64,000 bases of DNA from Pecten maximus (taxonomy: Eukaryota), in the NCBI RefSeq assembly GCF_902652985.1, contig NC_047028.1, forward strand, positions 35,650,001 through 35,714,000, in the 5' to 3' direction. Shown piece by piece: positions 2,586-63,900 of this stretch. The position numbers and the translations under genes are program-made. The notes below the pieces were generated by a model. The model had not been told where the DNA came from. It made no database searches and worked only from the letters and a program-made list of their open reading frames with translations. Each line of letters starts with the position of its first letter. The stretch's first letter is position 1.

Positions 2586-5500
2586 AGATGTACGTGTCGT
2601 GAGGTCCTGTTTGAATACAGAGATGTACGTGTCGTGAGGTCCTATTTGAATACACAGATGTACGTGATACGAGGTCCTGTTTGAATACAGAGATGTACGT
2701 GTCGTGAGGTCCTGTTTGAATACACAGATATACGTGTCGTGAGGCCCTATTTGAATACAGAGATGTACGTGTTGTGAGGTCCTATTTGAATACACAGATG
2801 TACGTGTCGTGAGGTCCTATTTGAATACACAGATGTACGTGTCGTGAGGTCCTGTTTGAATACAGAGATGTACGTGTCGTGAGGTCCTGTTTGAATACAC
2901 AGATGTACGTGTCGTGAGGTCCTATTTGAATACACAGATGTACGTGTCGTGAGGTCCTATTTGAATACACAGATGTACGTGTCGTGAGGCCCTATTTGAA
3001 TACAGAGATGTACGTGTCGTGAGGCCCTATTTGAATACAGAGATGTACGTGTCGTGAGGTCCTGTTTGAATACGGAGATGTACGTGTCGTGAGGTCCTGT
3101 TTGAATACACAGATGTACGTGTCGTGAGGTCCTGTTTGAATACACAGATGTACGTGTCGTGAGGTCCTGTTTGAATACAGAGATGTACGTGTTGTGAGGT
3201 CCTATTTGAATACGGAGATGTACGTGTTGTGAGGTCCTGTTTGAATACAGAGATGTACGTGTCGTGAGGTCCTGTTTGAATACAGAGATGTACGTGTCGT
3301 GAGGTCCTGTTTGAATACACAGATGTACGTGTCGTGAGGTCCTATTTGAATACACAGATGTACGTGTCGTGAGGCCCTATTTGAATACAGAGATGTACGT
3401 GTCGTGAGGTCCTGTTTGAATACACAGATGTACGTGTCATGAGGTCCTGTTTGAATACAGAGATGTACGTGTCGTGAGGTCCTATTTGAATACACAGATG
3501 TACGTGTCGTGAGGTCCTATTTGAATACACAGATGTACGTGTCGTGAGGCCCTATTTGAATACACAGATGTACGTGTCGTGAGGTCCTGTTTGAATACAC
3601 AGATGTACGTGTTGTGAGGTCCTGTTTGAATACAGAGATGTACGTGTCGTGAGGTCCTGTTTGAATACACAGATGTACGTGTCGTGAGGTCCTGTTTGAA
3701 TACACAGATGTACGTGTCGTGAGGTCCTATTTGAATACACAGATGTACGTGTCGTGAGGTCCTATTTGAATACACAGATGTACGTGTCGTGAGGTCCTGT
3801 TTGAATACACAGATGTACGTGTCGTGAGGTCCTATTTGAATACAGAGATGTACGTGTCGTGAGGTCCTGTTTGAATACACAGATGTACGTGTCGTGAGGT
3901 CCTATTTGAATACACAGATGTACGTGTCGTGAGGTCCTACTTGAATACACAGATGTACGTGTCGTGAGGCCCTATTTGAATACAGAGATGTACGTGTCGT
4001 GAGGCCCTATTTGAATACAGAGATGTACGTGTCGTGAGGTCCTGTTTGAATACGGAGATGTACGTGTCGTGAGGTCCTGTTTGAATACACAGATGTACGT
4101 GTCGTGAGGTCCTGTTTGAATACACAGATGTACGTGTCGTGAGGTCCTGTTTGAATACACAGATGTACGTGTTGTGAGGTCCTATTTGAATACGGAGATG
4201 TACGTGTTGTGAGGTCCTGTTTGAATACAGAGATGTACGTGTCGTGAGGTCCTGTTTGAATACAGAGATGTACGTGTCGTGAGGTCCTGTTTGAATACAC
4301 AGATGTACGTGTCGTGAGGTCCTATTTGAATACACAGATGTACGTGTCGTGAGGCCCTATTTGAATACAGAGATGTACGTGTCGTGAGGTCCTGTTTGAA
4401 TACACAGATGTACGTGTCATGAGGTCCTGTTTGAATACAGAGATGTACGTGTCGTGAGGTCCTATTTGAATACACAGATGTACGTGTCGTGAGGTCCTGT
4501 TTGAATACGGAGATGTACGTGTCGTGAGGTCCTGTTTGAATACACAGATGTACGTGTCGTGAGGTCCTGTTTGAATACACAGATGTACGTGTCGTGAGGT
4601 CCTATTTGAATACACAGATGTACGTGTCGTGAGGTCCTGTTTGAATACACAGATGTACGTGTCGTGAGGTCCTATTTGAATACAGAGATGTACGTGTCGT
4701 GAGGTCCTGTTTGAATACACAGATGTACGTGTCGTGAGGTCCTATTTGAATACACAGATGTACGTGTCGTGAGGTCCTATTTGAATACACAGATGTACGT
4801 GTCGTGAGGCCCTATTTGAATACAGAGATGTACGTGTCGTGAGGTCCTATTTGAATACACAGATGTACGTGTCGTGAGGTCCTGTTTGAATACACAGATG
4901 TACGTGTCGTGAGGTCCTATTTGAATACAGAGATGTACGTGTCGTGAGGTCCTGTTTGAATACACAGATGTACGTGTCGTGAGGTCCTATTTGAATACAC
5001 AGATGTACGTGTCGTGAGGTCCTACTTGAATACACAGATGTACGTGTCGTGAGGCCCTATTTGAATACAGAGATGTACGTGTCGTGAGGCCCTATTTGAA
5101 AACAGAGATGTACGTGTCGTGAGGTCCTGTTTGAATACGGAGATGTACGTGTCGTGAGGTCCTGTTTGAATACACAGATGTACGTGTCGTGAGGTCCTGT
5201 TTGAATACACAGATGTACGTGTCGTGAGGTCCTGTTTGAATACACAGATGTACGTGTTGTGAGGTCCTATTTGAATACGGAGATGTACGTGTTGTGAGGT
5301 CCTGTTTGAATACAGAGATGTACGTGTCGTGAGGTCCTGTTTGAATACAGAGATGTACGTGTCGTGAGGTCCTGTTTGAATACACAGATGTACGTGTCGT
5401 GAGGTCCTATTTGAATACACAGATGTACGTGTCGTGAGGCCCTATTTGAATACAGAGATGTACGTGTCGTGAGGTCCTGTTTGAATACACAGATGTACGT

Positions 5501-8262
5501 GTCATGAGGTCCTGTTTGAATACAGAGATGTACGTGTCGTGAGGTCCTATTTGAATACACAGATGTACGTGTCGTGAGGTCCTGTTTGAATACGGAGATG
5601 TACGTGTCGTGAGGTCCTGTTTGAATACACAGATGTACGTGTCGTGAGGTCCTGTTTGAATACAGAGATGTACGTGTCGTGAGGTCCTGTTTGAATACAC
5701 AGATGTACGTGTCGTGAGGTCCTGTTTGAATACACAGATGTACGTGTCGTGAGGCCCTATTTGAATACAGAGATGTACGTGTCGTGAGGTCCTGTTTGAA
5801 TACACAGATGTACGTGTCATGAGGTCCTGTTTGAATACAGAGATGTACGTGTCGTGAGGTCCTATTTGAATACACAGATGTACGTGTCGTGAGGTCCTGT
5901 TTGAATACGGAGATGTACGTGTCGTGAGGTCCTGTTTGAATACACAGATGTACGTGTCGTGAGGTCCTGTTTGAATACACAGATGTACGTGTCGTGAGGT
6001 CCTATTTGAATACACAGATGTACGTGTCGTGAGGTCCTGTTTGAATACACAGATGTACGTGTCGTGAGGTCCTATTTGAATACAGAGATGTACGTGTCGT
6101 GAGGTCCTGTTTGAATACACAGATGTACGTGTCGTGAGGTCCTATTTGAATACACAGATGTACGTGTCGTGAGGTCCTATTTGAATACACAGATGTACGT
6201 GTCGTGAGGCCCTATTTGAATACAGAGATGTACGTGTCGTGAGGTCCTATTTGAATACACAGATGTACGTGTCGTGAGGTCCTGTTTGAATACACAGATG
6301 TACGTGTCGTGAGGTCCTATTTGAATACAGAGATGTACGTGTCGTGAGGTCCTGTTTGAATACACAGATGTACGTGTCGTGAGGTCCTATTTGAATACAC
6401 AGATGTACGTGTCGTGAGGTCCTACTTGAATACACAGATGTACGTGTCGTGAGGCCCTATTTGAATACAGAGATGTACGTGTCGTGAGGCCCTATTTGAA
6501 AACAGAGATGTACGTGTCGTGAGGTCCTGTTTGAATACGGAGATGTACGTGTCGTGAGGTCCTGTTTGAATACACAGATGTACGTGTCGTGAGGTCCTGT
6601 TTGAATACACAGATGTACGTGTCGTGAGGTCCTGTTTGAATACACAGATGTACGTGTTGTGAGGTCCTATTTGAATACGGAGATGTACGTGTTGTGAGGT
6701 CCTGTTTGAATACAGAGATGTACGTGTCGTGAGGTCCTGTTTGAATACAGAGATGTACGTGTCGTGAGGTCCTGTTTGAATACACAGATGTACGTGTCGT
6801 GAGGTCCTATTTGAATACACAGATGTACGTGTCGTGAGGCCCTATTTGAATACAGAGATGTACGTGTCGTGAGGTCCTGTTTGAATACACAGATGTACGT
6901 GTCATGAGGTCCTGTTTGAATACAGAGATGTACGTGTCGTGAGGTCCTATTTGAATACACAGATGTACGTGTCGTGAGGTCCTGTTTGAATACGGAGATG
7001 TACGTGTCGTGAGGTCCTGTTTGAATACACAGATGTACGTGTCGTGAGGTCCTGTTTGAATACACAGATGTACGTGTCGTGAGGTCCTATTTGAATACAC
7101 AGATGTACGTGTCGTGAGGTCCTGTTTGAATACACAGATGTACGTGTCGTGAGGTCCTATTTGAATACACAGATGTACGTGTCGTGAGGTCCTATTTGAA
7201 TACACAGATGTACGTGTCGTGAGGCCCTATTTGAATACAGAGATGTACGTGTCGTGAGGCCCTATTTGAATACAGAGATGTACGTGTCGTGAGGTCCTGT
7301 TTGAATACGGAGATGTACGTGTCGTGAGGTCCTGTTTGAATACACAGATGTACGTGTCGTGAGGTCCTGTTTGAATACACAGATGTACGTGTCGTGAGGT
7401 CCTGTTTGAATACACAGATGTACGTGTTGTGAGGTCCTATTTGAATACGGAGATGTACGTGTTGTGAGGTCCTGTTTGAATACAGAGATGTACGTGTCGT
7501 GAGGTCCTGTTTGAATACAGAGATGTACGTGTCGTGAGGTCCTGTTTGAATACACAGATGTACGTGTCGTGAGGTCCTATTTGAATACACAGATGTACGT
7601 GTCGTGAGGCCCTATTTGAATACAGAGATGTACGTGTCGTGAGGTCCTGTTTGAATACACAGATGTACGTGTCATGAGGTCCTGTTTGAATACAGAGATG
7701 TACGTGTCGTGAGGTCCTATTTGAATACACAGATGTACGTGTCGTGAGGTCCTGTTTGAATACGGAGATGTACGTGTCGTGAGGTCCTGTTTGAATACAC
7801 AGATGTACGTGTCGTGAGGTCCTGTTTGAATACACAGATGTACGTGTCGTGAGGTCCTGTTTGAATACACAGATGTACGTGTTGTGAGGTCCTATTTGAA
7901 TACGGAGATGTACGTGTTGTGAGGTCCTGTTTGAATACAGAGATGTACGTGTCGTGAGGTCCTGTTTGAATACAGAGATGTACGTGTCGTGAGGTCCTGT
8001 TTGAATACACAGATGTACGTGTCGTGAGGTCCTATTTGAATACACAGATGTACGTGTCGTGAGGCCCTATTTGAATACAGAGATGTACGTGTCGTGAGGT
8101 CCTGTTTGAATACACAGATGTACGTGTCATGAGGTCCTGTTTGAATACAGAGATGTACGTGTCGTGAGGTCCTATTTGAATACACAGATGTACGTGTCGT
8201 GAGGTCCTATTTGAATACACAGATGTACGTGTCGTGAGGTCCTATTTGAATACACAGATGTA
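2586..8262. repeat. 35-bp satellite array, ~162 copies, with higher-order blocks
   Basis: Unit agatgtacgtgtcgtgaggtcct(a/g)tttgaataca(c/g). Exact 35-bp periodicity; variant markers recur at multiples of 35. Confidence 0.99.
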
Positions 8263-9679: not shown

Positions 9680-12600
9680 TAATGTGGAGTGTGAACAATG
9701 AAACATGACGTAATGTGGAGTGTGAACAATAAAAACACGAAGTTTAAAATGTGGAGTGTGAACAATAAAAACATGACGTAATGTGGAGTGTGAACAATAA
9801 AAACACGACGTAATGTGGAATGTGAACAATGAAAACATGACGTAATGTGGAGTGTGAACAATGAAAACATGACGTAATGTGGAGTGTGAACAATGAAAAC
9901 ATGACGTAATGTGGAGTGTGAACAATGAAAACACGACGTAATGTGGAGTATGAACAATGAAAACATGACGTAATGTGGAATGTGAACAATGAAAACATGA
10001 CGTAATGTGGAGTGTGAACAATGAAAACATGACGTAATGTGGAGTGTGAACAATGAAAACATGACGTAATGTGGAGTGTGAACAATGAAAACATGGCGTA
10101 ATGTGGAGTATGAACAATAAAAACGTGACGTAATGTGGAGTATGAACAATGAAAACATGGCGTAATGTGGAGTATGAACAATGAAAACATGGCGTAATGT
10201 GGAGTGTGAACAATGAAAACATGACGTAATGTGGAGTATGAACAATGAAAACATGGCGTAATGTGGAGTGTGAACAATGAAAACATGGCGTAATGTGGAG
10301 TATGAACAATGAAAACATGACGTAATGTGGAGTGTGAACAATGAAAACATGACGTAATGTGGAGTATGAACAATGAAAACATGACGTAATGTGGAGTGTG
10401 AACAATGAAAACATGACGTAATGTGGAGTATGAACAATGAAAACATGACGTAATGTGGAGTGTGAACAATGAAAACATGACGTAATGTGGAGTATGAACA
10501 ATGAAAACATGGCGTAATGTGGAGTGTGAACAATGAAAACATGACGTAATGTGGAGTGTGAACAATGAAAACATGACGTAATGTGGAGTATGAACAATGA
10601 AAACATGGCGTAATGTGGAGTGTGAACAATGAAAACATGACGTAATGTGGAGTGTGAACAATGAAAACATGACGTAATGTGGAGTGTGAACAATGAAAAC
10701 ATGACGTAATGTGGAGTGTGAACAATGAAAACATGACGTAATGTGGAGTGTGAACAATGAAAACATGACGTAATGTGGAGTGTGAACAATGAAAACATGG
10801 CGTAATGTGGAGTGTGAACAATGAAAACATGGCGTAATGTGGAGTGTGAACAATAAAAACATGACGTAATGTGAACAATGAAAACATGGCGTAATGTGGA
10901 GTGTGAACAATGGAAACATGGCGTAATGTGGAGTGTGAACAATGAAAACATGGCGTAATGTGGAGTGTGAACAATGGAAACATGACGTAATGTGGAGTGT
11001 GAACAATAAAAACATGACGTAATGTGAACAATGAAAACATGACGTAATGTGTGAACAATGAAAACATGACGTAATGTGTGAACAATGAAAACATGACGTA
11101 ATGTGTGAACAATGGAAACATGACGTAATGTGTGAACAATGAAAACATGGCGTAATGTGGAGTGTGAACAATAAAAACATGACGTAATGTGAACAATGGA
11201 AACATGACGTAATGTGGAGTGTGAACAATGAAAACATGGCGTAATGTGGAGTGTGAACAATGAAAACATGACGTAATGTGGAGTGTGAACAATGAAAACA
11301 TGGCGTAATGTGGAGTGTGAACAATGAAAACATGGCGTAATGTGGAGTGTGAACAATGAAAACATGACGTAATGTGGAGTGTGAACAATGAAAACATGGC
11401 GTAATGTGGAGTGTGAACAATGAAAACATGGCGTAATGTGGAGTGTGAACAATAAAAACATGACGTAATGTGAACAATGAAAACATGGCGTAATGTGGAG
11501 TGTGAACAATGGAAACATGGCGTAATGTGGAGTGTGAACAATGAAAACATGGCGTAATGTGGAGTGTGAACAATGGAAACATGACGTAATGTGGAGTGTG
11601 AACAATAAAAACATGACGTAATGTGAACAATGAAAACATGACGTAATGTGTGAACAATGAAAACATGACGTAATGTGTGAACAATGAAAACATGACGTAA
11701 TGTGTGAACAATGGAAACATGACGTAATGTGTGAACAATGAAAACATGGCGTAATGTGGAGTGTGAACAATAAAAACATGACGTAATGTGAACAATGGAA
11801 ACATGACGTAATGTGGAGTATGAACAATGAAAACATGACGTAATGTGGAATGTGAACAATGAAAACACGACGTAATGTGGAATGTGAACAATAAAAACAC
11901 GACGTAATGTGGAATGTGAACAATAAAAACACGACGTAATGTGGAGTGTGAACAATAAAAACACGACGTAATGTGGAGTGTGAATAATGAAAACACGACG
12001 TAATGTGGAGTGTGAACAATGAAAACGTGACGTAATGTGGAGTGTGAAAAATGAAAACGTGACGTAATGTGGAGTGTGAATAATGAAAACATGACGTAAT
12101 GTAGAATGTGAACAATGAAAACACGACGTAATGTGGAATGTGAACAATAAAAACATGACGTAATGTGGAGTGTGAACAATGAAAACATGACGTAATGTGG
12201 AATGTGAACAATAAAACACGACGTAATGTGGAGTGTGAACAATGAAAACATGACGTAATGTGGAATGTGAACAATGAAAACATGACGTAATGTGGAATGT
12301 GAACAATAAAAACACGATGTAATGTGGAGTGTGAACAATAAAAACATGACGTAATGTGGAGTGTGAACAATGAAACACGACGTAATGTGGAGTGTGAACA
12401 ATGAAACATGATGTAATGTGGAATGTGAACAATAAAAACACGCCGTAATGTGGAGTGTGAACAATGAAAACATGACGTAATGTGGAATGTGAACAATAAA
12501 AACATGACGTAATGTGGAATGTGAACAATAAAAACACGACGTAATGTGGAGTGTGAACAATGAAAACACGACGTAATGTGGAGTGTGAACAATAAAAACA

Positions 12601-13540
12601 TGACGTAATGTGGAATGTGAAAAATAAAAACATGACGTAATGTGGAATGTGAACAATAAAACACGACGTAATGTGGAGTGTGAACAATAAAAACACGACG
12701 TAATGTGGAATGTGAACAATAAAAACACGACGTAATGTGGAATGTGAACAATAAAAACACGACGTAATGTGGAGTGTGAACAATGAAAACACGACGTAAT
12801 GTGGAGTGTGAACAATAAAAACACGACGTAATGTGGAGTGTGAACAATAAAAACACGACGTAATGTGGAGTGTGAACAATAAAAACATGACGTAATGTGG
12901 AATGTGAACAATAAAACACGACGTAATGTGGAGTGTGAACAATGGAAACATGACGTAATGTGGAGTGTGAACAATAAAAACACGACGTAATGTGGAATGT
13001 GAACAATAAAAACACGACGTAATGTGGAGTGTGAACAATAAAAACACGACGTAATGTGGAGTGTGAACAATAAAAACATGACGTAATGTGGAATGTGAAC
13101 AATAAAACACGACGTAATGTGGAGTGTGAACAATGGAAACACGACGTAATGTGGAGTGTGAACAATAAAAACATGACGTAATGTGGAGTGTGAACAATAA
13201 AAACACGACGTAATGTGGAGTGTGAACAATAAAAACATGACGTAATGTGGAATGTGAACAATAAAACACGACGTAATGTGGAGTGTGAACAATGGAAACA
13301 TGACGTAATGTGGAGTGTGAACAATAAAAACACGACGTAATGTGGAATGTGAACAATAAAAACACGACGTAATGTGGAGTGTGAACAATAAAAACATGAC
13401 GTAATGTGGAATGTGAACAATAAAACACGACGTAATGTGGAGTGTGAACAATGGAAACATGACGTAATGTGGAGTGTGAACAATAAAACATGACGTAATG
13501 TTGAATGTGAAAAATGAAAACGTGACGTAATGTGGAGTGT
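9680..13540. repeat. 32-bp satellite array (~120 copies) with 25/27/31-bp deletion variants
   Basis: Unit aatgtggagtgtgaacaatgaaaacatgacgt. The 25/27-bp variants cluster at 10860-11800. Confidence 0.99.
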
Positions 13541-26754: not shown

Positions 26755-29700
26755 GGGAAAACAAGTTTCCCATCGCCATCCCGTGGAATAGTTCCGAAGT
26801 GCTTGTGAAACAGAAAAAAATCCCACTGCTATCTCGTGGCATAGAAAAGTTCCTAATTGCTTGTGAAAAAAAAAAAAAACAAAAACAAAAACAAAACAAC
26901 AAAAAATCCAACTGCTATCTCGTAAAATATAAAAGTTCCGAACTGCTGGTGAAACAGAAAAGTTTTCCGCTGCCAACTTGTGGAATAGAAAAGTTTTCCA
27001 CTGTCATCCTTTGGAATAGAAAGGTTCCGAACTGCTTGTGAAACAGAAAAGTTCCAAATTACTGCTTCTTAGAATACAAATTTCCCCACTGTTACCTCAT
27101 GGAATAAAAAAGTCTCCCTCTTCCATCTCGTAAAAAAGAAATGTTCCAAACTGCTGTTGAAACAGGAAAGTTTCCTACTACCACCTCGGGAAATAGAAAA
27201 GTCTCCCACTACCACCTCGGGAAATAGAAAAAAATAGATGAACCCCCACCGCTATCTCGTGGAATAGACAAATCCCCCACCGATATCTCGTGGAATAGAC
27301 AAATCCCCCACCGCTATCTCGTGGAATAGACAAATTCCCCACGCTATCTCGTGGAATAGACAAATCCCCCACCGCTATCTCGTGGAATAGACAAATCCCC
27401 CACCGCTAACTCGTGGAATAGACAAATTCCCCACGCTATCTCGTGGAATAGACAAATCCCCCACCGCTATCTCGTGGAATAGACAAATCCCCCACCGCTA
27501 ACTCGTGGAATAGACAAATTCCCCACCGCTATCTCGTGGAATAGACAAATCCCCATCACTATCTCTTGGAATAGACAAATCCTTCACCGCTATCTCGTGG
27601 AATAGACAAATTCTTCTCGCCTATTTCGTGGAATACACAAATTACCCCACCACTATCTCTTGGAATAGACAAATTCCTCTCCGCTATTTCGTGGAATAGA
27701 CAAATCCCCAACCGCTGTCTCGTGGAATAGACAAATTCCTCTCGCCTATTTCGTGGAATACACAAATTACCCCACCTCTATCTCGTGGAATAGACAAATT
27801 CCTCTCGGCTATCTCGTGGAATAGACAAATCCCCCGCCGCTATCTCGTGGAATAAACAAATCCCCAAGGCTATCTCGTGGAATAGACAAATCCCCCACCG
27901 CTATCTCGTGGAATAAACAAATCCCCAACGCTATCTCGTGGAATAGACAAATCACCCACCGCTATGTCGTGGAATAGACAAATTCCTCTCGCCTATTTCG
28001 TGGAATACACAAATTACCCCACCGCTATCTCGTGGAATAGACAAATTCCTCTCGGCTATCTCGTGGAATAGACAAATCCCCACCGCTATCTCGTGGAATA
28101 GACTATTTCCTCACGGCTATTTCGTGGAATAGACAAATTCCCCACCACTATCTCGTGGAATAGACAAATCCCCTACCGCTATCTCGTGGAATAGACAAAT
28201 CCCCCGCCGCTATCTCGTGGAATAGACAAATTCCCCACCGCTGTCTCGTGGAATAGACAAATCCCCCACCGCTATCTCGTGGAATAGACAAATCCCCCAC
28301 CGCTATCTCGTGGAATAGACAAATCCTCCATCGATATCTCGTGGAATAGACAAATCCCCCACCGCTATCTCGTGGAATAGACAAATTCCCCACGCTATCT
28401 CGTGGAATAGACAAATCCCCCACCGCTATCTCGTGGAATAGACAAATCCCCCACCGCTAACTCGTGGAATAGACAAATTCCCCACCGCTATCTCGTGGAA
28501 TAGACAAATTCTTCTCGCCTATTTCGTGGAAAAAACAAATTACCCCACCACTATCTCTTGGAATAGACAAATTCCTCTCCGCTATTTCGTGGAATAGACA
28601 AATCCCCCACCGCTATCTCGTGGAATAGACAAATCCCCCACCGCTAACTCGTGGAATAGACAAATTCCCCACCGCTATCTCGTGGAATAGACAAATCCCC
28701 ATCACTATCTCGTGGAATAGACAAATCCTTCACCGCTATCTCGTGGAATAGACAAATCCCCCACCGCTAACTCGTGGAATAGACAAATTCCCCACCGCTG
28801 TCTCGTGGAATAGACAAATCCCCCACCGCTATCTCGTGGAATAAACAAATCCCCAACGCTATCTCGTGGAATAGACAAATCACCCACCGCTATCTCGTGG
28901 AATAGACAAATTCCTCTCGCCTATTTCGTGGAATACACAAATTACCCCACCGCTATCTCGTGGAATACACAAATTCCTCTCGGCTATCTCGTGGAATAGA
29001 CAAATCCCCCACCGCTATCTCGTGGAATAGACAAATCCCCACCGCTATCTCGTGGAAATAGACTATTTCCTCACGGCTATTTCGTGGAATAGACAAATTC
29101 CCCACCACTATCTCGTGGAATAGACAAATCCCCTACCGCTATCTCGTAGAATAAACAAATCCCCCACCGCTATCTCGTGGAATAGACAAATTCCCCACCG
29201 CTATCTCGTGGAATAGACAAATCACCCACCGCTATCTCGTGGAATAGACAAATCCCCCACCACTATCTCGTGGAATAGACAATTCCCCCACCACTATCTC
29301 GTGGAATAGACAAATCCCCCACGCCTATCTCGTGGAATAGACAAATACCCCACCCCTATCTCGTGGAATAGACAAATACCCACCGATATCTCGTGGAATA
29401 GACAAATACCCACCGATATCTCGTGGAATAGACAAATTCCCCACCACTATCTCGTGGAATAGACAAATATCCACCGCTATCTCGTGGAATAGACAAATCC
29501 CCGACTACTATCTCTCGTGGAAAAGTTCCCCACCACTATCTCTCGTGGAAAAGTTACCCACTACTATATCGTGTGGAAAAGTTACCCACTACTATATCGT
29601 GTGGAAAAGTTCCCCACTACTATCTCTTGTGGAAAAGTTTCCCACTACTATCTCTCGTGGAAACGTTCCCCACCACTATCTCGTGGAATAGACAAATACC

Positions 29701-31915
29701 CACCGCTATGTCGTGGAATAGACAAATCACCGACTACTATCTCTCGTGGAAAAGTTCCCGACTACTATCTCTCGTGGAAAAGTTCCCCACTACTATCTCT
29801 CATGGAAAAGTTCCCCACCACTATCTCTCGTGGAAAAGTTCCCCACTACTATCTCTCGTGGAAAAGTTCCCCACTACTATCTCTCGTAGAAAAGTTCCCC
29901 ACCACTATCTCTCGTGGAAAAGTTCCCCACTACTATCTCTCGTGGAAAAGTTCCCCACTACTATCTCTCGTGGAAAAGTTACCCACTACTATCTATCGTG
30001 GAAAAGTTCCCCACTACTGTATCTGGTGGAAAAGTTCCTCGCTACTATCTCGTGAAATAGTTCCCCACTACTATCTCTCGTAGAAAAGTTCCCGACTACT
30101 ATCTCTCGTGGAAAAGTTCCCCACTACTATCTCTCGTGGAATAGACAAATAACCACCGATATATCGTGGAATAGACAAATTCCCCACCACTATCTCGTGG
30201 AATAGACAAATATCCACCGCTATCTCGTGGAATAGACAAATCCCCGACTACTATCTCTCGTGGAAAAGTTCCCCACCACTATCTCTCGTGGAAAAGTTCC
30301 CCACTACTATCTCTCGTGGAAAAGTTCCCCACTACTATCTCTCGTGGAAAAGTTCCCCACTACTATCTCTCGTGGAAAAGTTCCCCACCACTATCTCTCG
30401 TGGAAAAGTTCCCCACTACTATCTCTCGTGGAAAAGTTCCCCACCACTATCTCTCGTAGAAAAGTTCCCCACTACTATCTCTCGTGGAAAAGTTCCCCAC
30501 TACTATCTCTCGTGGAAAAGTTCCCCACTACTATCTCTCGTGGAAAAGTTCCCCACTACTATCTCTCGTCGAAAGGTTCCCCACCACTATCTCATGGAAA
30601 AGTTTCCCATTACTATCTCTCTTGGAAAAGTTACCCACTACTATCTCTCGTGGAAAAGTTCCCCACTACTATCTCTCGTAGAAAGTTCCCCACTACTATC
30701 TCTCGTGGAAAAGTTACCCACTACGACTGTATCTCTCGTAGGAAAGTTCCCCACTACTATCTCTCGTAGAAAAGTTCCCCACTACTATCTCTCGTGGGAA
30801 AGTTCCCCACCACTATCTCTCGTAGAAAGTTCCCCACTACTATCTCTCGTTGAAAAGTTCCCCACCACTATCTCTTGTGGAAAAGTTCTCGACTACTATC
30901 TCTCGTGGGAAAGTTCCCCACCACTATCTCTCGTAGAAAGTTCCCCACCACTATCTCTCGTAGAAAGTTCCCCACTACTATCTCTCGTTGAAAAGTTCCC
31001 CACTACTATCTCTCGTAGAAAAGTTCCCCACTACTATCTCTCGTGGGAAAGTTCCCCACCACTATCTCTCGTAGAAAAGTTCCCCACTACTATCTCTCGT
31101 GGGAAAGTTCCCCACCACTATCTCTCGTAGAAAGTTCCCCACTACTATCTCTCGTTGAAAAGTTCCCCACTACTATCTCTCGTGGGAAAGTTCCCCACCA
31201 CTATCTCTCGTAGAAAGTTCCCCACCACTATCTCTCGTGGAAAAGTTCCCCACTACTATCTCTCGTGGAAAAGTTCCCCTCTACTATCTCTCGTGGAAAA
31301 GTTCCCCACTACTATCTATCCCGGAAAAGTTCCCCACTACTGTATCTGGTGGAAAAGTTCCTCGCTACTATCTCGTGAAATAGTTCCCCACTACTATCTC
31401 TCGTAGAAAAGTTCCCGACTACTATCTCTCGTGGAAAAGTTCCCCACTACTATCTCTCGTGGAATAGACAAATAACCACCGATATCTCGTGGAATAGACA
31501 AATTCCCCACCACTATCTCGTGGAATAGACAAATATCCACCGCTATCTCGTGGAATAGACAAATCCCCGACTACTATCTCTCGTGGAAAAGTTCCCCACC
31601 ACTATCTCTCGTGGAAAAGTTCCCCACTACTATCTCTCGTGGAAAAGTTCCCCACTACTATCTCTCGTGGAAAAGTTCCCCACTACTATCTCTCGTGGAA
31701 AAGTTCCCCACTACTATCTCTCGTGGAAAAGTTCCCCACTACTATCTCTCTTGGAAAAGTTCCCCACCACTATCTCTCGTGGAAAAGTTCCCCACTACTA
31801 TCTCTCGTGGAAAAGTCCCCACTACTATCTCTCGTGGAAAAGTTCCCCACTACTATCTCTCGTGGAAAATTTCCCCACTACTATCTCGTCGAAAAGTTAC
31901 CCACTTTTCCCCCCC
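26755..31915. repeat. Composite satellite: degenerate precursor (26755-27240), 31-bp array (27245-29510), related 28-bp array (29500-31915)
   Basis: 31-mer gctatctcgtggaatagacaaatcccccacc; 28-mer ctactatctctcgtggaaaagttcccca; shared core tctcgtggaa. Confidence 0.98.
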
Positions 31916-33817
31916 GAGTAATAGAAAAGTTGTTCAACTACTTGGTACTCTATCGTTTGCAGTCATTTCGTATATAAATACTTGACTCAATTTGTCTTTT
32001 CTGTGCTCATCTGCTAAATTATAGTTTGTAGCTAAAATACCAAGCATGTGTTCACGTTTAATGTGTCATGAGCTATTAGAAATTTAAAACGGAGCGTTAA
32101 TATAATACTTAACGGGAGAATTACGGGCATGCGTAAACAGCCTAGTCATGGTAAATGATTTATAAGATATAGATATACACGTAACAGATGTTTATAGTAG
32201 TAGATATAATTGGTGAGATATATGTAAATAAAACTGCACGGCATTGATACATGTGTAAACAACACACGTGTGTCCCGGAGTTCGCGTACATCAATTTCTA
32301 TTGAAGCCCGACAATAGTCATTTAATATGTTTCTGATGTTCCGATATCTAAGTGACCAATTGTCTCAAACAACCTCATCCTTTATTTTCTCATCATCATA
32401 TTCATCGCCATCATCCCCATTCTTCCTGGACAAAGCAGGCACCGCCCCCTGGCGATGAATCCGATTAGTAGTTCGAGATCCGCTGTCACGGTGCCGTAAA
32501 CCGTCGGAGGTCTGTTGGCTATGGTTCTATACTGACCAGTCGGCAACTGACCAGCAGGGGCTTAACAACAATCACCCGTCCTTTACAATAGCCGCTCAAC
32601 ACCACACGAATATGTAGTTATGTGCGTATGTATATATCATTCAAGCACAAATCGCCATCTCTGTATTGACGTAGCAAATGTACGAGAATCAGGAGCTCTA
32701 GATCTCTTATCGCTGTGTATATGTATGACTCGTATGTATAACCGAGAGATGCGGTGTTTAGTGAAGGAGTTCTTGACTTGTGGTGGTCACGCCGCTAGTT
32801 GAATCAATAGTGAATTATCCTGGCGAGCCTTTATCATGCATCGTTCCTTTTGCGTGGCTGAAATAAGCGACGTAAACTGGGTGACTCTATTCGATTTCAA
32901 CGTATTGATTTCCTGGTATATATATCCATATTGAGGACCTAGGCGAAAAGACAGCGGAACAAGGCAACCCGAAAGGCACGTCCGAATCGACGTTTCTCGA
33001 AGATCAACACTAGTTGCGTTTTTTCTCTCCCACTAACAACCGAAACTTAGTGTTGGCTGCGAGTAGCCGTGGCCAGTAGAAGGCGCGCAGAGACAACCTC
33101 GGCAGTGTTAACCGAGCAAAATCAATGAAAAATCTTTGTCTAGTTGTTAGAGGAATGCGCTCATAAAATGTGAAATCTGTTTGCATTTAGTTGTCTATCT
33201 AAACTATTTTTTCACGCATAATGCAGCCTGTTGAAATGCCATCTGACGAATTTTCTGAATCGGAAAGCTTGCACTGAGAAATCAACATGTGCCTCTACAT
33301 ACGCATGCGCAAATGATGCGAGTAATTGAGGGGAATGGAAAAGATGGCGGTGACGTATAGATACTGTGCTTACTTTGTGTATTCAACATGTGTGATGTGC
33401 CGGCAAAGCAACAGCAGATACACAGCAGCCGAATAAAAGCTGGCGGATTCGATGTGAACTCGAATTTAAGTAGGTATGTCGCTTGCCATTGAGTTCCCAT
33501 CGTTCGCCTGGACCAACACCGGTTTGTTTAGAGTTTGTGAAGAAACGAAGAAGAAACGTGAAAACGTGTTTCAAAGGGAATATACTACAAAAAGCCCATT
33601 CGAAGGACCAGTGTTAGACCTGTATTCATCAACAAGTTGTGTTTGTTATCAAAATAAGTGTTTCTTGTTCCAGTTAATTTCCGGAGAGGAATTAAAAAGA
33701 ATTGCCACGCCAGGTTTTCCGTTTGGATAACTGAATGAGTTTTCTCGACAGGTACCACTTCCACATTTTAATGCTTTTCTTAAATTTTCAACCATTTTTC
33801 TCATCTTTTTCTGAACT

Positions 33818-34348
33818 ATGACATTGCGTGATGTGGCAGGCTCGCTATATGAAAAGCCGAGTTCACCATACAAAGAGGCCTGTTACCCACGCAGTATTCT
33901 AACAATCTACTTTCTTCTGTTGATGTGTTTTGTTCACGGTTGTAAAAGTATTCTCCACTCGGGATCAAAATTACCAGCCCACCCCTCCGACAGCTCGTGC
34001 GAGATCAGGAACGATGGGGGCAGTTCTCCATTCGTTAACCGGTCCCAGTGCCTTTCTCTCAGTTCTAGATTCAGTGAAAATATTTGCAATATTAGTGAAA
34101 CACTCCGAACGCAGGAATTACGGAAATACAAGTTAAAGTTCTGTTCAGATTATACTGTGTATGCGGTGATTCCAAATAAGGATATAGTTCGCGAAATAGA
34201 GGATGCAGGCTGTTTAAATTATCTCCAGAAAGTTATATTTTTGGATCTGGAGGTTGAAAAAATGTATGAGGAATTTAAGCAAATAATGTTCAAGTTTGAC
34301 TGCTCCCGGACAAAATATTCGGTAAAGTGGGCATGTGTTGATTGTGAG
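33818..34348 (+). CDS. NALF1: First coding exon (177 codons) of a NALCN channel auxiliary factor (NALF/FAM155/NLF-1, Mid1 family); the gene continues beyond the window
   Basis: ATG, then a hydrophobic N-terminal segment (ILTIYFLLLMCFVHGC) and a Cys-rich domain: LKFCSDYTV...C...LDLEVEKMYEEFKQIMFKFDCSRTKYSVKWACVDCE. This matches the FAM155/Mid1 pattern (human ...FCNSYTL...EKYEEFESVLHKY...YSVKSCPEDCK). It ends at a perfect phase-0 donor GAG|GTAAGT (34349). Confidence 0.85.
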
Positions 34349-34659
34349 GTAAGTAATTTATTTACCTATAAAGCATGCATGGTTTGTTTACAGCTGTTGC
34401 CTTTTTTTTTGTACACGTGTGACCACACATATGCGATATTACATGTACCGGCCTTTATAAATCTGGTGAATAAATAGTGGTTAAACAAATATTTCATAAC
34501 TGAACATAAAAATAGAAATGTATTTAAGTCATCATTAGAGAAAAGGACAACAGTAAGTATACAATTATCTACTGCCAATAATAATTTAAAATCCAGCATA
34601 CTCGCTATTACATTATAAGGTATTCTAATATCTAGATTTAATATACATAACATATGTAA

Positions 34660-57720: not shown

Positions 57721-59179
57721 CACTGGTAACCCTAAAACCTTGAATTTACTCGCGCGAGTTTGAATTTTTCAGTGAAAGTGAGCGTTTTCAACGTGGCGTG
57801 AGTATTTTAAGTGTAATTGAGTATTCTCAGTGTGTCGTTTTTAAATTCAGTATGCCGTTTTTAAATTCAGAGTGCCGTAGATCGTTACGCATCAGCGCAC
57901 TCGACAAGTAGTATAGGATTACCTGTACCGATCCCGCGATCGATCGATGAAACGTCCAACACCGCGCACGACCTCGTGTATCGTACGGTAGAAATACGTG
58001 TTCTTGCAAACGGGAAATATTACTGGAAGCAACATTTATTGCTCTCGGATTTGAACATTATTCTTTACTCCAGATCAATCGTTATCTATTGTAATTACGC
58101 CTGTAATTAATCACAACCCACCTATTCCGTTTACTTGCTCCGAGATCGACTGATATTGTCGTGATATTTGATGTACTTGTTTTCGGTAATACGGCGGTGG
58201 TGTTGTCAAAAAAATACCCATGTTATGATTTACCCCGTATAATGTGAAGTGTTCATATGAGAAAGTGTATTGGAGCAATAAACCGGTTACGTTGACTACT
58301 GTACATCGTATTTTGTTATTTATTTATAATACTTGACCCGGGCGGGATCCATAAGTAATCACTGTGTATTAACTGTGTCAATCTTCCTGTTTCAGATATC
58401 CATAACTGAGAAGTATCGCCGTTGCTGTTACGTGTTCAAGAAACCGTCAACACATGTGATGATTGATAAACATGTTTAATTATACAATTAAATTGTTATA
58501 TCGCCAGTATATTGCATTTTGTTATTTATACTTACCCGGGACGTATCGGAGATGACGTACAGTAGCAAGTAAAGTATTCAACGTTTATATTAACTGTTTC
58601 AATCTTCTTTTTCAGGTATTCCATGACCCAGGTAGAATGACGTTGTTCATCATATTTTCAAGTGGGTTCGAGGATAGAAACCTACATCTCATTTATCAAT
58701 AAAATAGTCATCAGAAGTATATCTATATGCAGTTATATTCATTAGCTTACCTGGAGCAGATCGACGATCCTATCCATTACTTGGTAACGGGTGTCTTCAG
58801 GTAAGATATATCCTATCACAACACACTGCGTTTAACAGCTATTAAAGCAAAACCCTTTCATTTGTTGTATATGTTATCAAACAATATATATACAAAGAAA
58901 TAAGTGTCCAACTACTAACCCGGATATTTTGTATCCAATGTATTTAATCGTACCATGGAATTTGTAAGATGGGCGGTCGTGTCTCTTTGTCGACCTGTGT
59001 AAACCCCACGGGGACTAGTATTTAATTGTCAACGCAACACTTTCTATATAGAATATCAAGATTTGGTGTTGGCAAAAGGGATTCGGGACAACGTTTATCA
59101 CAACTTTGAATTATTCGAATTTGACACAACAACCTGTTTTTAGGAAGTCGTTCCAAAGTACGAGCTTCAGTGTTGAAAT

Positions 59180-59572
59180 AACGTTCCCAAATATAAGTAC
59201 AAATACAACAGTTACATACTTGATTTTTTTATTATACTCTCAAGCAGAAGAAAATTCAGACGTTTAAACAAATTTCAAATATGAACCTCGAGTATTGATA
59301 GAATTTCGAACCCCCGCGCATCATGTTATTTATGGAAGGCGGCCATTACAGAAACTATGTGTGGAATTTATGTCAATTTTCAGAGTCGCCAAAATTCACG
59401 TTCCCAACAACATTTGCCACTGAACATATCTCATATATTTCATTATATCCCCAAGCAGAAGAAAACTCATACGTTTTAAGAAATTTCAAATATGAACCTT
59501 GAGTATTGATAGAATTTCGAATCCCTGCGCATCATGTTATGGAAGGCGGCCATTACAGAAACGGTAATGTGT
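59180..59572. repeat. Two-copy ~210-bp tandem duplication
   Basis: caagcagaagaaaa...gagtattgatagaatttcgaa...ggaaggcggccattacagaaac at 59241-59355 and 59452-59562. Confidence 0.85.
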
Positions 59573-59752
59573 GGACGTAATTATCCCAATTATAGATACC
59601 GACTCGGTAATTGATATATTGTTTTTATATATATAAACATTTGCAATAAATATATAATTGTAAAAGTTCTGAGGAGTTACGGCACTACTGTTTTAGTTCC
59701 GACTCCTGAGACCAGTGTATCCTCGTATAGTGATTTTCAAGCTCGTCAACTC

Positions 59753-60379
59753 TGTGGTTCTGTCTCGACATTTACAGCTGGCTACAGATCAATGGAATGA
59801 CAACACAGTTTATAACGTTCAACATTTTATTATATGAAGATTAGAAGTGATGAAACATGATGACTGAATATATACACAATGCTCACGTAACCTAACTGTG
59901 CGTCCGGTCCATATCTCGTATGAAAAATATCCACCCCTGTCCCTGCCTGGGGATAAATGTACCCAAAAATACAGCGACTATAACATGCCTACAACGGGAA
60001 AAGACCACCCGAAATAACAACGGAATTACTGACTATATCATGCCTATTATTGAGAGAAAAATACCACCCAACCCGGGATAATTTAGAGGTTTAAGTCCGA
60101 AATCTACTGCATACCTGACTCTGTGAAGGAGAAAGACGAGCCGGCCAGCTACATGTAAGCCTCTGCCAGACTGTCATATAATTATGCCTCGAAATACACG
60201 TGCAGTTTGTCCCAAGACTATAGATAGACCGATACCTGAGCGTAGAGTAATGTACAGGTAAGGTGATTATAAATAAACACATACCCCGAACATTAGCCAA
60301 TCAGAAACGTCGACAATACAACCGGAAGGGATTCCCCAACGGGAATACCCCGTATAAACAATATGGACCGATGATCACA
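59753..60379 (-). mobile_element. Possible solo LTR
   Basis: TGTG...CACA termini. On the minus strand an ATTGG/CCAAT box and TATA-like tttataa lie near the 5' end, and AATAAA lies ~75 bp before the 3' end. No clean TSD. Confidence 0.4.
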
Positions 60380-60512
60380 ACAACACGCACTCTGATTTAC
60401 AGGATGTAAATATGGTACTATATACAACAAGTAAGTGTTCAAAACCCAAATCTTTTACATAAAAGTAGTTTTTATTGCATAAATTCGAGTGCTGGATGTT
60501 TTTCGAGTGTTT

Positions 60513-60538
60513 TTGGTGGTCCTGAAAAGGGCCGTCAT
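60513..60538 (-). terminator. Replication-dependent histone-type 3' UTR stem-loop (one stem mismatch)
   Basis: Minus strand gacGGCCCTTTTCAGGACCaccaa versus consensus aacGGYYCTTTTCAGRRCCacca. Confidence 0.65.
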
Positions 60539-60539
60539 T

Positions 60540-60960
60540 ATAGTGTAGCTATAGACGAATCAAAGCGACTGCATGACTTCTATCTTCCTTCCATTGTTAC
60601 TGCAGTATCCGCTGTTGGAGAAGGCAAATTCCATCTTTAGAGTCAGGTGTGTGCCATTCTTGCGCTGAACCGAGTCTGTGGAAGCAAGTTTGGTCCGTGC
60701 ACCCAGATCTTATCGTGGTGGATTTTCTTCATAACTCAGTTAATGAGTGATAACCCGTTTGTTGTAGGTCCGATCATGACGTGGAAACATACTTGGTTAA
60801 CTCCCTGGGCAATCAAAACGTCATAGATTCGAATGGTGGTTGTTTTGATTTCAGCCGATGTACTGTCCATTACATCATTCTCTCCGGCCTGGATGAAGAC
60901 TGCCCGGTACTTGGACAGGTCTTTTGTCGTTGTGGGTGTGGTGCGAAAGTAATCAATGCT
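60540..60960 (-). pseudogene. 5'-truncated, frameshifted SGNH/GDSL hydrolase (esterase-like) fragment, probably from a mobile element
   Basis: Manual translation from 60960: SIDYFRTTPTTTKDLSKYRAVFIQAGENDVMDSTSAEIKTTTIRIYDVLIAQGVNQV (block III GxND at 60885-60874). After frameshifts it reads MFPRHDRTYNKRV, LIN*VMKKIHHDKIWVHG and DSVQRKNGTHLT (block V DGxH-like, 60658-60644). Confidence 0.6.
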
Positions 60961-63900
60961 TTTGTTATATTAGGTATATTCACATGTCTACGGATGAGCC
61001 GAAAGGCTTAAAGTAATAAAGAACTTAACTTTGGTGACATGTGTTTTGATATTAACTTTGACATGTTTTTAGAATATCGATATCCACGGCTATTAATTAC
61101 TCAAGTCAACCAATACAGATTCGTCTGCATAGTGTCTGTACAGAAAGACTAACGTGTCATGTGATCTGTTTTATTCATGAAACCGATAATATTGTGCACA
61201 GGTGAGATACCCAGGTAAACTGGCCAATGCAACAATCATAGGAAGTCAGGCATGACAACGACTAATTAATCAACGCCCCAGGACACCGCTAGGTCAGCAG
61301 GTCAACTGGACACTTTCCAGGTAAACGGGTATTTACGAAATTCACTGAGTTCGGTATACTGCCGCTAATTATATTCTAATTAATGCCCCGGGGATGAGGT
61401 CTTCGGTGAAAAGCTTGTGCCTGACGGGGTCAGTTAACTTTTGGTGTGTGGACCCACTTTTCGTGAGGTAGCCTACACACATGTTGTGCACATGTTTCAG
61501 TAGCAGCACTGCTGTAATGCTACGAGATCAATTCTTCTGACGATCAGGCTTATAGATATATGACCAATTGACTGTTTTATTTAATATGTCCATTGACAAA
61601 ACATCGTGTGCGCTGATTTCAGATTAGAATTTCAGATTATAATAGACCATCGTTCTTTGTTTGATTGATTGATGCACAGATTTAAGGGAGTAACTGAAAT
61701 GGTGGCCTGCAGTATAGACGACAGTGTGGACATTAGCAACACAGACCAGTCTGAAGATTCAAATTCAACTTCATTTATTCTCTTTTCACATATGATCTGG
61801 ATACGAGATTTAGGGTTGATGAATTTGGTGAATATTGCTGACAAGAAGTTGGAATCCACCAATATCAATTTGAGCTTTTAAGTGATTAATTTGTATTGAA
61901 ATGGAATCTGAAATGACCGCTTAGGTAACACAACCTGATGTGTTATACCAGGGAAATACAGATGGTATACACGATCTAATAATCGGTCAATCATCAATAA
62001 ATATATATTGGTTATGTCTTACTCATTACTATAAAAAGGAACACCGCATCATCATTATTTAAATAAAATAATGTGTCATTTCAAAATATAACAGTTCTGG
62101 ATATTCTGGTTTGTGAGACGCTACACACATACTGTAAACTTATGCATTATAATCTATGCAAAACCCTCTTTTAGTCATGAAGGACACTTAATTCAGAAAG
62201 TTATATTTTATATAGATTCATCATGATCTACAATAGACTAGTATCTCTTCCGTATGAAAACCAGTGTTTGAGCCTACAACTTGCTTATTATCATACAGAT
62301 CTTATCCCTTATGTTACATGTCATGGTCCCAGGGACTACCGACGATTAAATGCTTGAGAAAGATATAATTTATATACGATCGTTGAAAGTGAAATTATAT
62401 CAAAGTGCTTGGCAACAATTATAATAGTATTGGTCGATACGTACAGGTACATATCACAGAGACTTATTAAAACCATAATTTTTATTTCCGTTTTTTTGTG
62501 TGATAAAAAACATACAATTTAGTTCATCGTGACTAATCATAATTAATACTAAAATTATTAAACTCGCAATGGTTAAAATGTATTTTTTTCTTTTATTTCG
62601 TTTTTTCATTTATTTATCTTTCTTTTCTTTTAGTAATTGTGTAATTATCGTGAAGTGATTGAGATCCTTGTGTTTTACTTTCCATTCGTGTGTCGCAAGT
62701 CATGTCTTCTCTTAAAACAGGAATTAGAAAAAATATACCAGCATGTTCGGAGAATTACGAATCCTCAAGTTTGGGTTGGTTAGTATACCGCTAAACAATT
62801 TCCAGGTGAGAAATTACGGTCCACAAGCTTATAACACCTGTCACTGCACCACAGGTGTCTGTGATTTCTGGCGTTCAGGTTCTAATCGGCACATGCCGAT
62901 AATTACTTGTGAGTTCACACGTTAGGTTTCCATGCACTTCAAAAAAGTTCCGAAGATATATTTTTGGAATTCAGTGAGTTTCGTTTTTCCTACAAGCAAA
63001 ACAAATTCGTATCTCAAAAGTTTGCCTATAGAATAATTAACCAAATGTGGCTCATTCACATAACCACGATGTTGAAAATTTACTCTATGAATCCTGTCTG
63101 GGAGTTACTAATTTTTCATGAACAAGTGTTACAACGACCCGTTGAAATAGAAAATTATTCAATTTTTAATGTTAATGACCCGTAATCATAGAAAATTAGC
63201 AAGAGGATACACGTTGTATTTGGCCCGTTATAAAAGAAAATTAGTAAGATGTTACATGTTGTATACGGCTTGTTATAATAAACAAAATAGTAAGATGTTA
63301 CATGTTATATATGGCCTGTTATAATAGAAAATTATATGTCCCTGGTTTTGGTAGCACATTTATATGGGGATAACATATGTGTGAGTTTGTACTTATCCCG
63401 ATTCATCTCATCTCAACACCTTTACCAAAAGTGGTTGGTATACAGAGAAAGAAAATACGATAATAATGCAAACTATATAAAAAAAAATAACAGCGTTCTT
63501 CCTTTGGATTTCCTTAAATATACAGCAATTATCATCATTAAGAGTTACTTTTCTCCGTTTCACTCCGAAAGTGCCAGTCTTCTTTCACACCTGTCCAGTC
63601 ACCCATTGTTAATTACACGGACACATGTGGTTACTGTTTTCTTTGAGATTATCATTTTAAACAGTGAAGTGTATCCCCTAACCGAACTTCCCACTGCGCG
63701 AGTTCTTCTAGAAGACCTGTAAAATACATGTACCATAACCTATATGTTACCAGAAACATGGACACAAACACACATCAGTGAGGACTGACCGAGTTTGGCT
63801 GGGTGGACCCGGTCAGACGCTGGAGCTGTCACCTGTACCCTATACCGTAACCTGTATGTTACACGAGTAAACACACTTACCTTTGCAGAATAACACGCCC

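Follow-up and report, generated by a model that had tools for sequence, protein, structure and literature searches.

How does the relic of an SGNH-hydrolase gene come to be followed by the hairpin that ends animal histone messages? This question is raised by a locus on the minus strand of a 64,000-nucleotide stretch of Pecten maximus DNA (contig NC_047028.1, positions 35,650,001 to 35,714,000; henceforth the window), which is of animal type, rich in repeats and 38% G+C. An earlier description made from the letters alone (the sequence-only reading) had seen there the remains of a mobile element or endogenous virus that borrows the histone 3'-end pathway. On balance, we favour a narrower answer: the window holds a broken, likely multi-copy remnant of an intronless SGNH cargo gene, likely of DNA transposons, and the message of that gene is predicted to have its 3' end made by the histone pathway. 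The arrangement is real and conserved; its parts are known and their combination is new.

The decayed minus-strand frame carries the SGNH motifs in the order that the sequence-only reading had given (VFIQAGENDV from 60900, MFPRHDRTYN from 60790 and NGTHL from 60658), spread over two reading frames, and the end of NGTHL indeed lies 110 nucleotides (nt) before the hairpin. Matched to P0003, an intact homolog of 204 amino acids (aa), the relic is the C-terminal 60% of an SGNH-hydrolase gene that has suffered frameshifts (phmmer E 1.9e-12; tblastn E 6.6e-18). A frameshift-aware alignment of the two scored 252, compared with a maximum of 39.5 among eight shuffles, and reached the same stop codon; the lesions are frameshifts (near 60790, 60750, 60694 and 60612) and a stop codon within the frame (60738-60736). 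Only block III (G-x-N-D), the FPR motif, a decayed block V and the C-terminus are recognisable. The relic peptide matched no SGNH family of Pfam in any of four frames, so that its identity as an SGNH hydrolase holds through the match to P0003 and not through a profile of its own. Further upstream, the N-terminal alignment score was equalled in 4 of 60 shuffles and is not significant, and a block I relic near 61000 was dropped because it did not stand out from shuffles either. The distance from the stop codon to the hairpin is 46 nt, within the 21-51 nt seen on eight histone contigs of a sample described below. As the sequence-only reading had held, there is no histone gene nearby: none of the 129 frames of at least 26 aa between 58900 and 64000 has a histone match in Pfam, or a match to a Pfam family of any kind.

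The hairpin has the arms GGCCCT and AGGACC around a TTTC loop and is followed by ACCA. Its position and the ACCA are as the sequence-only reading had described them, but the claimed 6-bp stem pairs at only five of six positions, the mismatch being C-A at 3/14. It is unique in the 64 kb at two or fewer mismatches, no match arose in 100 shuffles, and it folds weakly (-4.6 kcal/mol, z -1.1). The window copy of the gene is dead, with one stem pair lost. The features of the locus are collected in the table.

Table. Features of the SGNH relic and its surroundings in the window (positions are those of the window; a point marks features without strand).
Feature	Position	Strand	Basis or remark
Decayed C-terminal part of an intronless SGNH-hydrolase open reading frame	60583..60933	-	phmmer, tblastn, frameshift-aware alignment to P0003 residues 82-204
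Stop codon TAG	60582-60580	-	TMEGR(stop) aligned to TMRQR(stop) of P0003
Histone-type 3' stem-loop (5/6 pairs) plus ACCA	60514..60533	-	Pattern match, Rfam RF00032 score, folding
Purine-rich tract at the site of a histone downstream element, lacking an AAAGA/RRRGR core	60498..60506	-	
AATAAA, possible poly(A) signal, +42 from the hairpin	60471..60476	-	
Probable eroded 5' part of the reading frame, candidate ATG at 61064 (MSKL as in P0003)	60934..61064	-	Not significant
Pair of CCAAT boxes, read as ATTGG; they precede the candidate ATG by 50 and 164 nt	61110..61228	-	Weak promoter hint only
Repeated unit holding the relic, minimal extent, minus insertions 59659-60463 and 61876-62055	59534..62354	.	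Contig pieces, depths
Later 801-bp insertion with TG...CA ends	59659..60459	.	Skipped by majority contigs; not part of the SGNH unit

The same layout is found in other DNA. JGI metagenome contigs were scanned for a pattern that combines block V (Asp-x-x-His), a stop codon and a degenerate hairpin, and 25 loci matched. Of these, 24 are SGNH genes (19 by SGNH profile and five by DNA similarity to those), while the last, L019, is a chance phage match. The expectation that homologous copies would have a perfect stem consistently placed behind the stop was borne out: in 20 of these loci the hairpin follows the stop at a distance of 11-48 nt, the other four having broken frames, and the stem is perfect in all of them, although the pattern admitted 64 arm combinations of which eight pair. 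Three stem types occur, which may go back to independent captures from histone genes and not to compensatory change. An A at -4 (23/24 loci) and a block of purines from +13 to +18, neither of which was part of the search pattern, accompany the hairpin, and 18 of the 24 reach the RF00032 cut-off of 34 bits. A U7-type element (RRRGR at +9..+24) is present in 13 of the 24, compared with 12.5% of 5061 background 16-mers and 10 of 12 histone ends, and the exact AAAGA element in one. Among four hairpin-bearing open reading frames (ORFs), the ratio of nonsynonymous to synonymous substitution rates (dN/dS) is 0.22-0.42 in all six pairs; many other related copies are frameshifted or truncated. The same pattern matched nothing in prokaryote genomes (GTDB, 596 Gb) or in IMG/VR. 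The link between SGNH gene and hairpin is beyond chance.

Three side observations concern these loci. L002:85-1527 is a 419-bp tandem array whose four units each consist of an SGNH 3' half and a hairpin. Tandem histone hairpins about 30 nt apart occur in L004 (5794-5842), L005, L012, L016 and L021, with A-rich sequence after the second and AATAAA in most. Of three loci examined for it, two (L010:730-760 and L021) carry a candidate E2F-like motif, GCGCGAAA, at 52-59 nt before the SGNH start.

How are these genes related to the window relic? A full phmmer scan with the relic returned three matches, namely P0003, P0005 (E 1.4e-4) and P0004, a plant repeat protein that was set aside as spurious. 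A profile search collected 18 proteins: 13 strong, unnamed ones, several of them truncated, and five weak ones, including two rock-oyster LOC proteins. Word-based searches that used only the relic or P0003 added nothing, sequence searches of PDB were uninformative, and homology scans returned no relatives from IMG/VR or the JGI metagenomes. A structural model of P0003 reached a predicted local distance difference test score (pLDDT) of 83 from a 23-row alignment and 41 from the single sequence, and its top PDB matches are PAF-AH and GDSL acylhydrolases of the SGNH/GDSL type (E 3.7e-9). All four blocks, I (Ser), II (Gly), III (Asn) and V (Asp-x-x-His), are kept in P0003 as well as in the metagenome loci L010 and L007. 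Pfam GDSL matches P0003 at E 0.21 and none of the 13 clade members at E 0.1; the intact ORFs of L010, L007 and L014 exceed the cut-off of Pfam GDSL_2 (PF13472). In a tree, P0003 and P0005-P0016, the closest relatives of the window relic, form a clade of their own (support 96/95), distinct from the hairpin-bearing metagenome ORFs, whose rows are unresolved and on long branches. The two families are homologous by HHalign (probability 97.4, E 1e-11).

What, then, carried the gene? In L010 and L006, the SGNH ORF and hairpin are followed, 1.45 kb on, by an ORF of 1515 aa on the same strand, and relics of this ORF lie 0.5-0.9 kb downstream in L004, L007 and L021. Its acidic motifs are transposase-like, one stretch resembles FEN/XPG, and the tail is rich in Cys. 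By comparison with Repbase descriptions it would be an AcademX-type transposase, the layout of which was reportedly set out by Kapitonov and Jurka in 2010 and by Kojima in 2020. No profile confirmed this assignment: Pfam gave only NYN at E 0.099, and there was no match in PDB. Pfam has no Academ profile (PMC5751038), and AcademX elements are described as having a nuclease and 3-4-bp target duplications (PMC10045372).

An upstream end, TAG(G/T)CCGGGC, is common to L004, L009, L010 and L021, with unrelated flanks. Among the curated bivalve transposons of PMC10294476 (supplement file 24), for which the first ~400 letters of each entry were covered, 12 of the 13 Academ entries shown open with TAG, and 10 of 12 occurrences of TAGTCCGG are the first letters of curated Academ-1 consensi. 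No hairpin was found in those first ~400 letters, which is no test of the elements. One complete layout was seen, in L010 (TAG terminus, SGNH gene, hairpin and the separate 1515-aa transposase-like gene, all on the same strand). In L009 the transposase is lost, and the SGNH gene and hairpin are kept between Academ end sequences. Because five loci lie upstream of a transposase-like gene and four have Academ-type ends, one carrier appears to be an Academ-like DNA transposon and not a retroelement or virus; in the other 18 loci and in the window no carrier was identified. Fragments of piggyBac and hAT elements (L001, L011 and L023) were rejected as carriers, not being common to the related loci. 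The mobile-element setting proposed by the sequence-only reading is thus upheld by relatives, whereas the viral alternative it offered is not, there being no viral gene near the window relic. Its suggested parents, CR1/L2 and Ngaro elements, are not supported either, since the visible carrier is Academ-like and the 129 frames around the relic contain neither a reverse transcriptase nor a tyrosine recombinase.

The window relic is itself probably repeated. In each of the four sequencing runs examined for copies, out of 24 listed, the majority contig skips 59659-60463 and with it an insertion whose terminal inverted repeat is 8 bp long and whose 4-bp duplication contains one mismatch; it is likely a solo long terminal repeat (LTR). 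A CCAAT/TATA-like stretch at 60200-60400 was set aside, as it belongs to this later LTR-like insertion. Over the hairpin, the depths of the major and minor contigs are 206 vs 11.9 in run X1 and 1067 vs 57 in run X5. Because these ratios (17 and 19) agree in two DNA runs, the window copy would be one of about 18 near-identical dead copies, the depth being no copy number in itself. One contig covers 60464-61211 with 15 differing letters and a single 4-letter gap; the frameshifts are common to the copies, and the broken form seems to be what spread.

Searches for the ends of the repeated unit did not find them, and candidate ends in the window were set aside where they failed: contigs continue past the TAG at 62338, differing there, and for three candidates at 59016-59141 a partner was lacking both within the window and in the starts of curated elements. 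We also note a TAGTCC-type end at about 59018 that faces away from the gene, and a duplicated segment of ~210 bp at 59227-59562 with a GGCGGCCAT motif, like one common near bivalve Academ ends. Elsewhere in the window, an open frame of 220 aa (33815-34477, plus strand) looks like a host exon, and very long minisatellite arrays (2586-8262, 9680-13540 and 27243-31905, with units of 35, 32 and 28-31 bp) give rise to spurious long ORFs.

We propose the following mechanism. The carrier would be a DNA transposon, Academ-like where it is visible, with the SGNH gene as cargo. SLBP would bind the hairpin just past the stop codon, and U7-guided cleavage would follow after ACCA. The hairpin would thereby give the cargo its own short message, lacking a poly(A) tail, with transcription ending ahead of the transposase gene, and would tie translation and decay of the cargo to S phase and also to eggs and early embryos, in which a new insertion is passed on to offspring. 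The enzyme would likely hydrolyse lipid or acyl esters, by analogy with the esterase of the long interspersed nuclear element (LINE) ZfL2-1, for which such hydrolysis was shown (PMC3905857).

How does this compare with known systems? Histone mRNAs are stated to be the only mRNAs made with this 3' end (PMC4604434, PMC5054213), the downstream element being paired by U7 through its UCUUU box (PMC5054213). The SGNH loci share with the animal histone 3' end (RF00032, SLBP, U7 and the histone downstream element, HDE) the 16-nt hairpin, its AC-rich 5' flank, the ACCA or ACCC that follows, the short stop-hairpin distance, the intronless ORF and, in 13 of 24, a purine-rich downstream element; they differ in that the gene encodes an esterase and in that AATAAA replaces the downstream element in one group. 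Curated Academ-1 consensi have the same TAG(G/T)CCGG end, and the 1515-aa transposase-like ORF is a possible further likeness to AcademX-type elements, whereas the SGNH gene with its histone hairpin, upstream of the transposase, is an addition seen in the relatives and not in the window copy. No SGNH gene in Academ and no histone hairpin behind a transposon gene came up in the literature searched, in which subscription journals and Repbase Reports are thinly represented; the available parts of PMC9210276 and PMC4021074 do not mention a hairpin on the SGNH genes of mobile elements, nor does the available part of bioRxiv 10.64898/2026.10.14.759114 mention non-histone or transposon targets.

Several observations weigh against the histone-route transposon cargo that we favour. 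RF00032, to which the sequence-only reading had looked for confirmation, scores the window hairpin at 17.9 bits (E 0.19), under the cut-off, and the A-rich tract that it had seen behind the hairpin, although purine-rich, lacks the AAAGA or RRRGR core. Neither a transposase nor paired TAG/CTA termini were found in the window, beyond which the unit may extend; only 5 of the 24 related loci have the transposase-like ORF downstream (0.5-1.5 kb) and only 4 an Academ-type end, and no right end or target duplication lies within the contigs of the Academ-linked loci. The pattern scan selected on the hairpin, so SGNH genes lacking one went uncounted and the counts have no denominator; by DNA the 24 loci form about six groups, near-duplicates among them, and their host species may be few. 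The DNA context of the clade of P0003 and P0005-P0016 comes from the window alone, so the one hairpin seen in that clade is the imperfect one. No RNA that ends at the hairpin was seen; RNA-type contigs from the window's species cross it, although contigs cannot show ends and these may be DNA. Read depth in runs X3 and X13 is flat and low over the promoter, the gene and beyond the hairpin, which is no evidence of expression.

The main rival accepts the hairpin as a binding site of SLBP and has the message polyadenylated further down, the hairpin serving translation, egg storage or S-phase decay rather than cutting. We regard it as unlikely, yet as an explanation to be taken seriously. AATAAA stands within 70 nt of the hairpin in 9 of the 24 loci, as it does in the window, and the five loci with tandem double hairpins speak for it too. 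The main Academ-linked group goes furthest in this direction and counts against cleavage at the hairpin: AATAAA is at most 10 nt from the hairpin in eight of nine loci, and RRRGR is missing in eight of nine. The 13 loci with a U7-type element pull the other way, AATAAA being present in only two of them, and a poly(A) signal is also found at 2 of 12 true histone ends.

Rather improbable, in our estimate, is a host origin, in which multi-copy host genes use the histone 3' end, an Academ element picked one up in a single lineage, and the window copy is a duplicated host pseudogene. Such an origin would fit the 19 of 24 loci, and the window, in which no transposase is seen, and the purifying selection on hairpin-bearing ORFs. 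It would also fit a sample taken blind to SGNH, a hairpin-only scan of GTDB assemblies that gave 30 loci on 14 contigs: eight histone contigs, three with a non-histone ORF followed by a hairpin and downstream element, two with no clear ORF and one bacterial chance match, and none with an SGNH gene. Given these non-histone ORFs, the SGNH gene would be only one among a number of non-histone users of this 3' end. Against a host origin, many copies are frameshifted or truncated and the broken form itself seems to have been amplified, and L009 retains gene and hairpin between Academ ends even where the transposase is gone.

The three non-histone cases are of note in their own right. L040 (153-998, minus strand) has an intronless ORF with a MADF domain (Pfam E 2.6e-8), a perfect hairpin 25 nt past the stop and an AAAGA element. 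In L056 (162-1683), the hairpin stands 19 nt past the stop of a RING-finger ORF of 230 aa and has AAAGA with it; the RING-finger ORF is arranged head to head with one for a protein kinase, which is intronless. L052 (111-514, minus strand) has an orphan ORF of ~120 aa, and its hairpin and downstream element are almost the same as at the histone genes in L042 and L050. The contigs L027-L056 also show that several bacterial bins in GTDB are contaminated with animal DNA, histone gene arrays included; L026 (phage) and L041 (bacterial) were rejected as chance hairpin matches.

That the window hairpin is a chance neighbour, or a histone-pseudogene leftover unrelated to the SGNH frame, strikes us as very improbable. 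Its imperfect stem, its Rfam score and the missing HDE core would agree with this, as would the fact that the closest homologs are known as proteins only, without their DNA; yet the hairpin stands at a histone-like distance from the true stop, no histone match occurs in the 129 frames, and the same layout recurs in 24 homologous loci. Least credible of all is a relic of an Ngaro or CR1/L2 retroelement, a Helitron or an endogenous virus: Ngaro, CR1/L2 and Helitron elements do carry SGNH genes (PMC9210276, PMC3905857, PMC4021074), their ORF4, ORF1 esterase and texim genes share the SGNH fold, catalytic blocks and status as cargo, and no carrier was identified for the window copy, but the 129 window frames hold no reverse transcriptase, recombinase, Rep/helicase or viral match, none adjoins the SGNH gene in 13 loci screened (80 of 114 frames), IMG/VR gave no relative, the Ngaro SGNH ORF overlaps that of the recombinase, and introns are present in texim genes, whereas here the gene stands alone, intronless and with its own 3' signal.

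Beyond the window, we put forward tentatively, with rather less confidence than our answer for the locus itself, that invertebrate DNA transposons carry esterase cargo that uses the SLBP/U7 pathway, its messages lacking poly(A) tails and timed to S phase and eggs. If true, this would be a first non-histone, parasite-encoded client of the SLBP/U7 pathway, and a selected transposon cargo with the full signal would break the histone-only rule as worded in PMC4604434. It would also belong, together with the MADF, RING and orphan ORFs, to a larger class that has stayed hidden because poly(A)-selected transcriptomes miss it, which would explain its absence from poly(A) data, and selfish DNA could in this way time its expression to replication and the germline.

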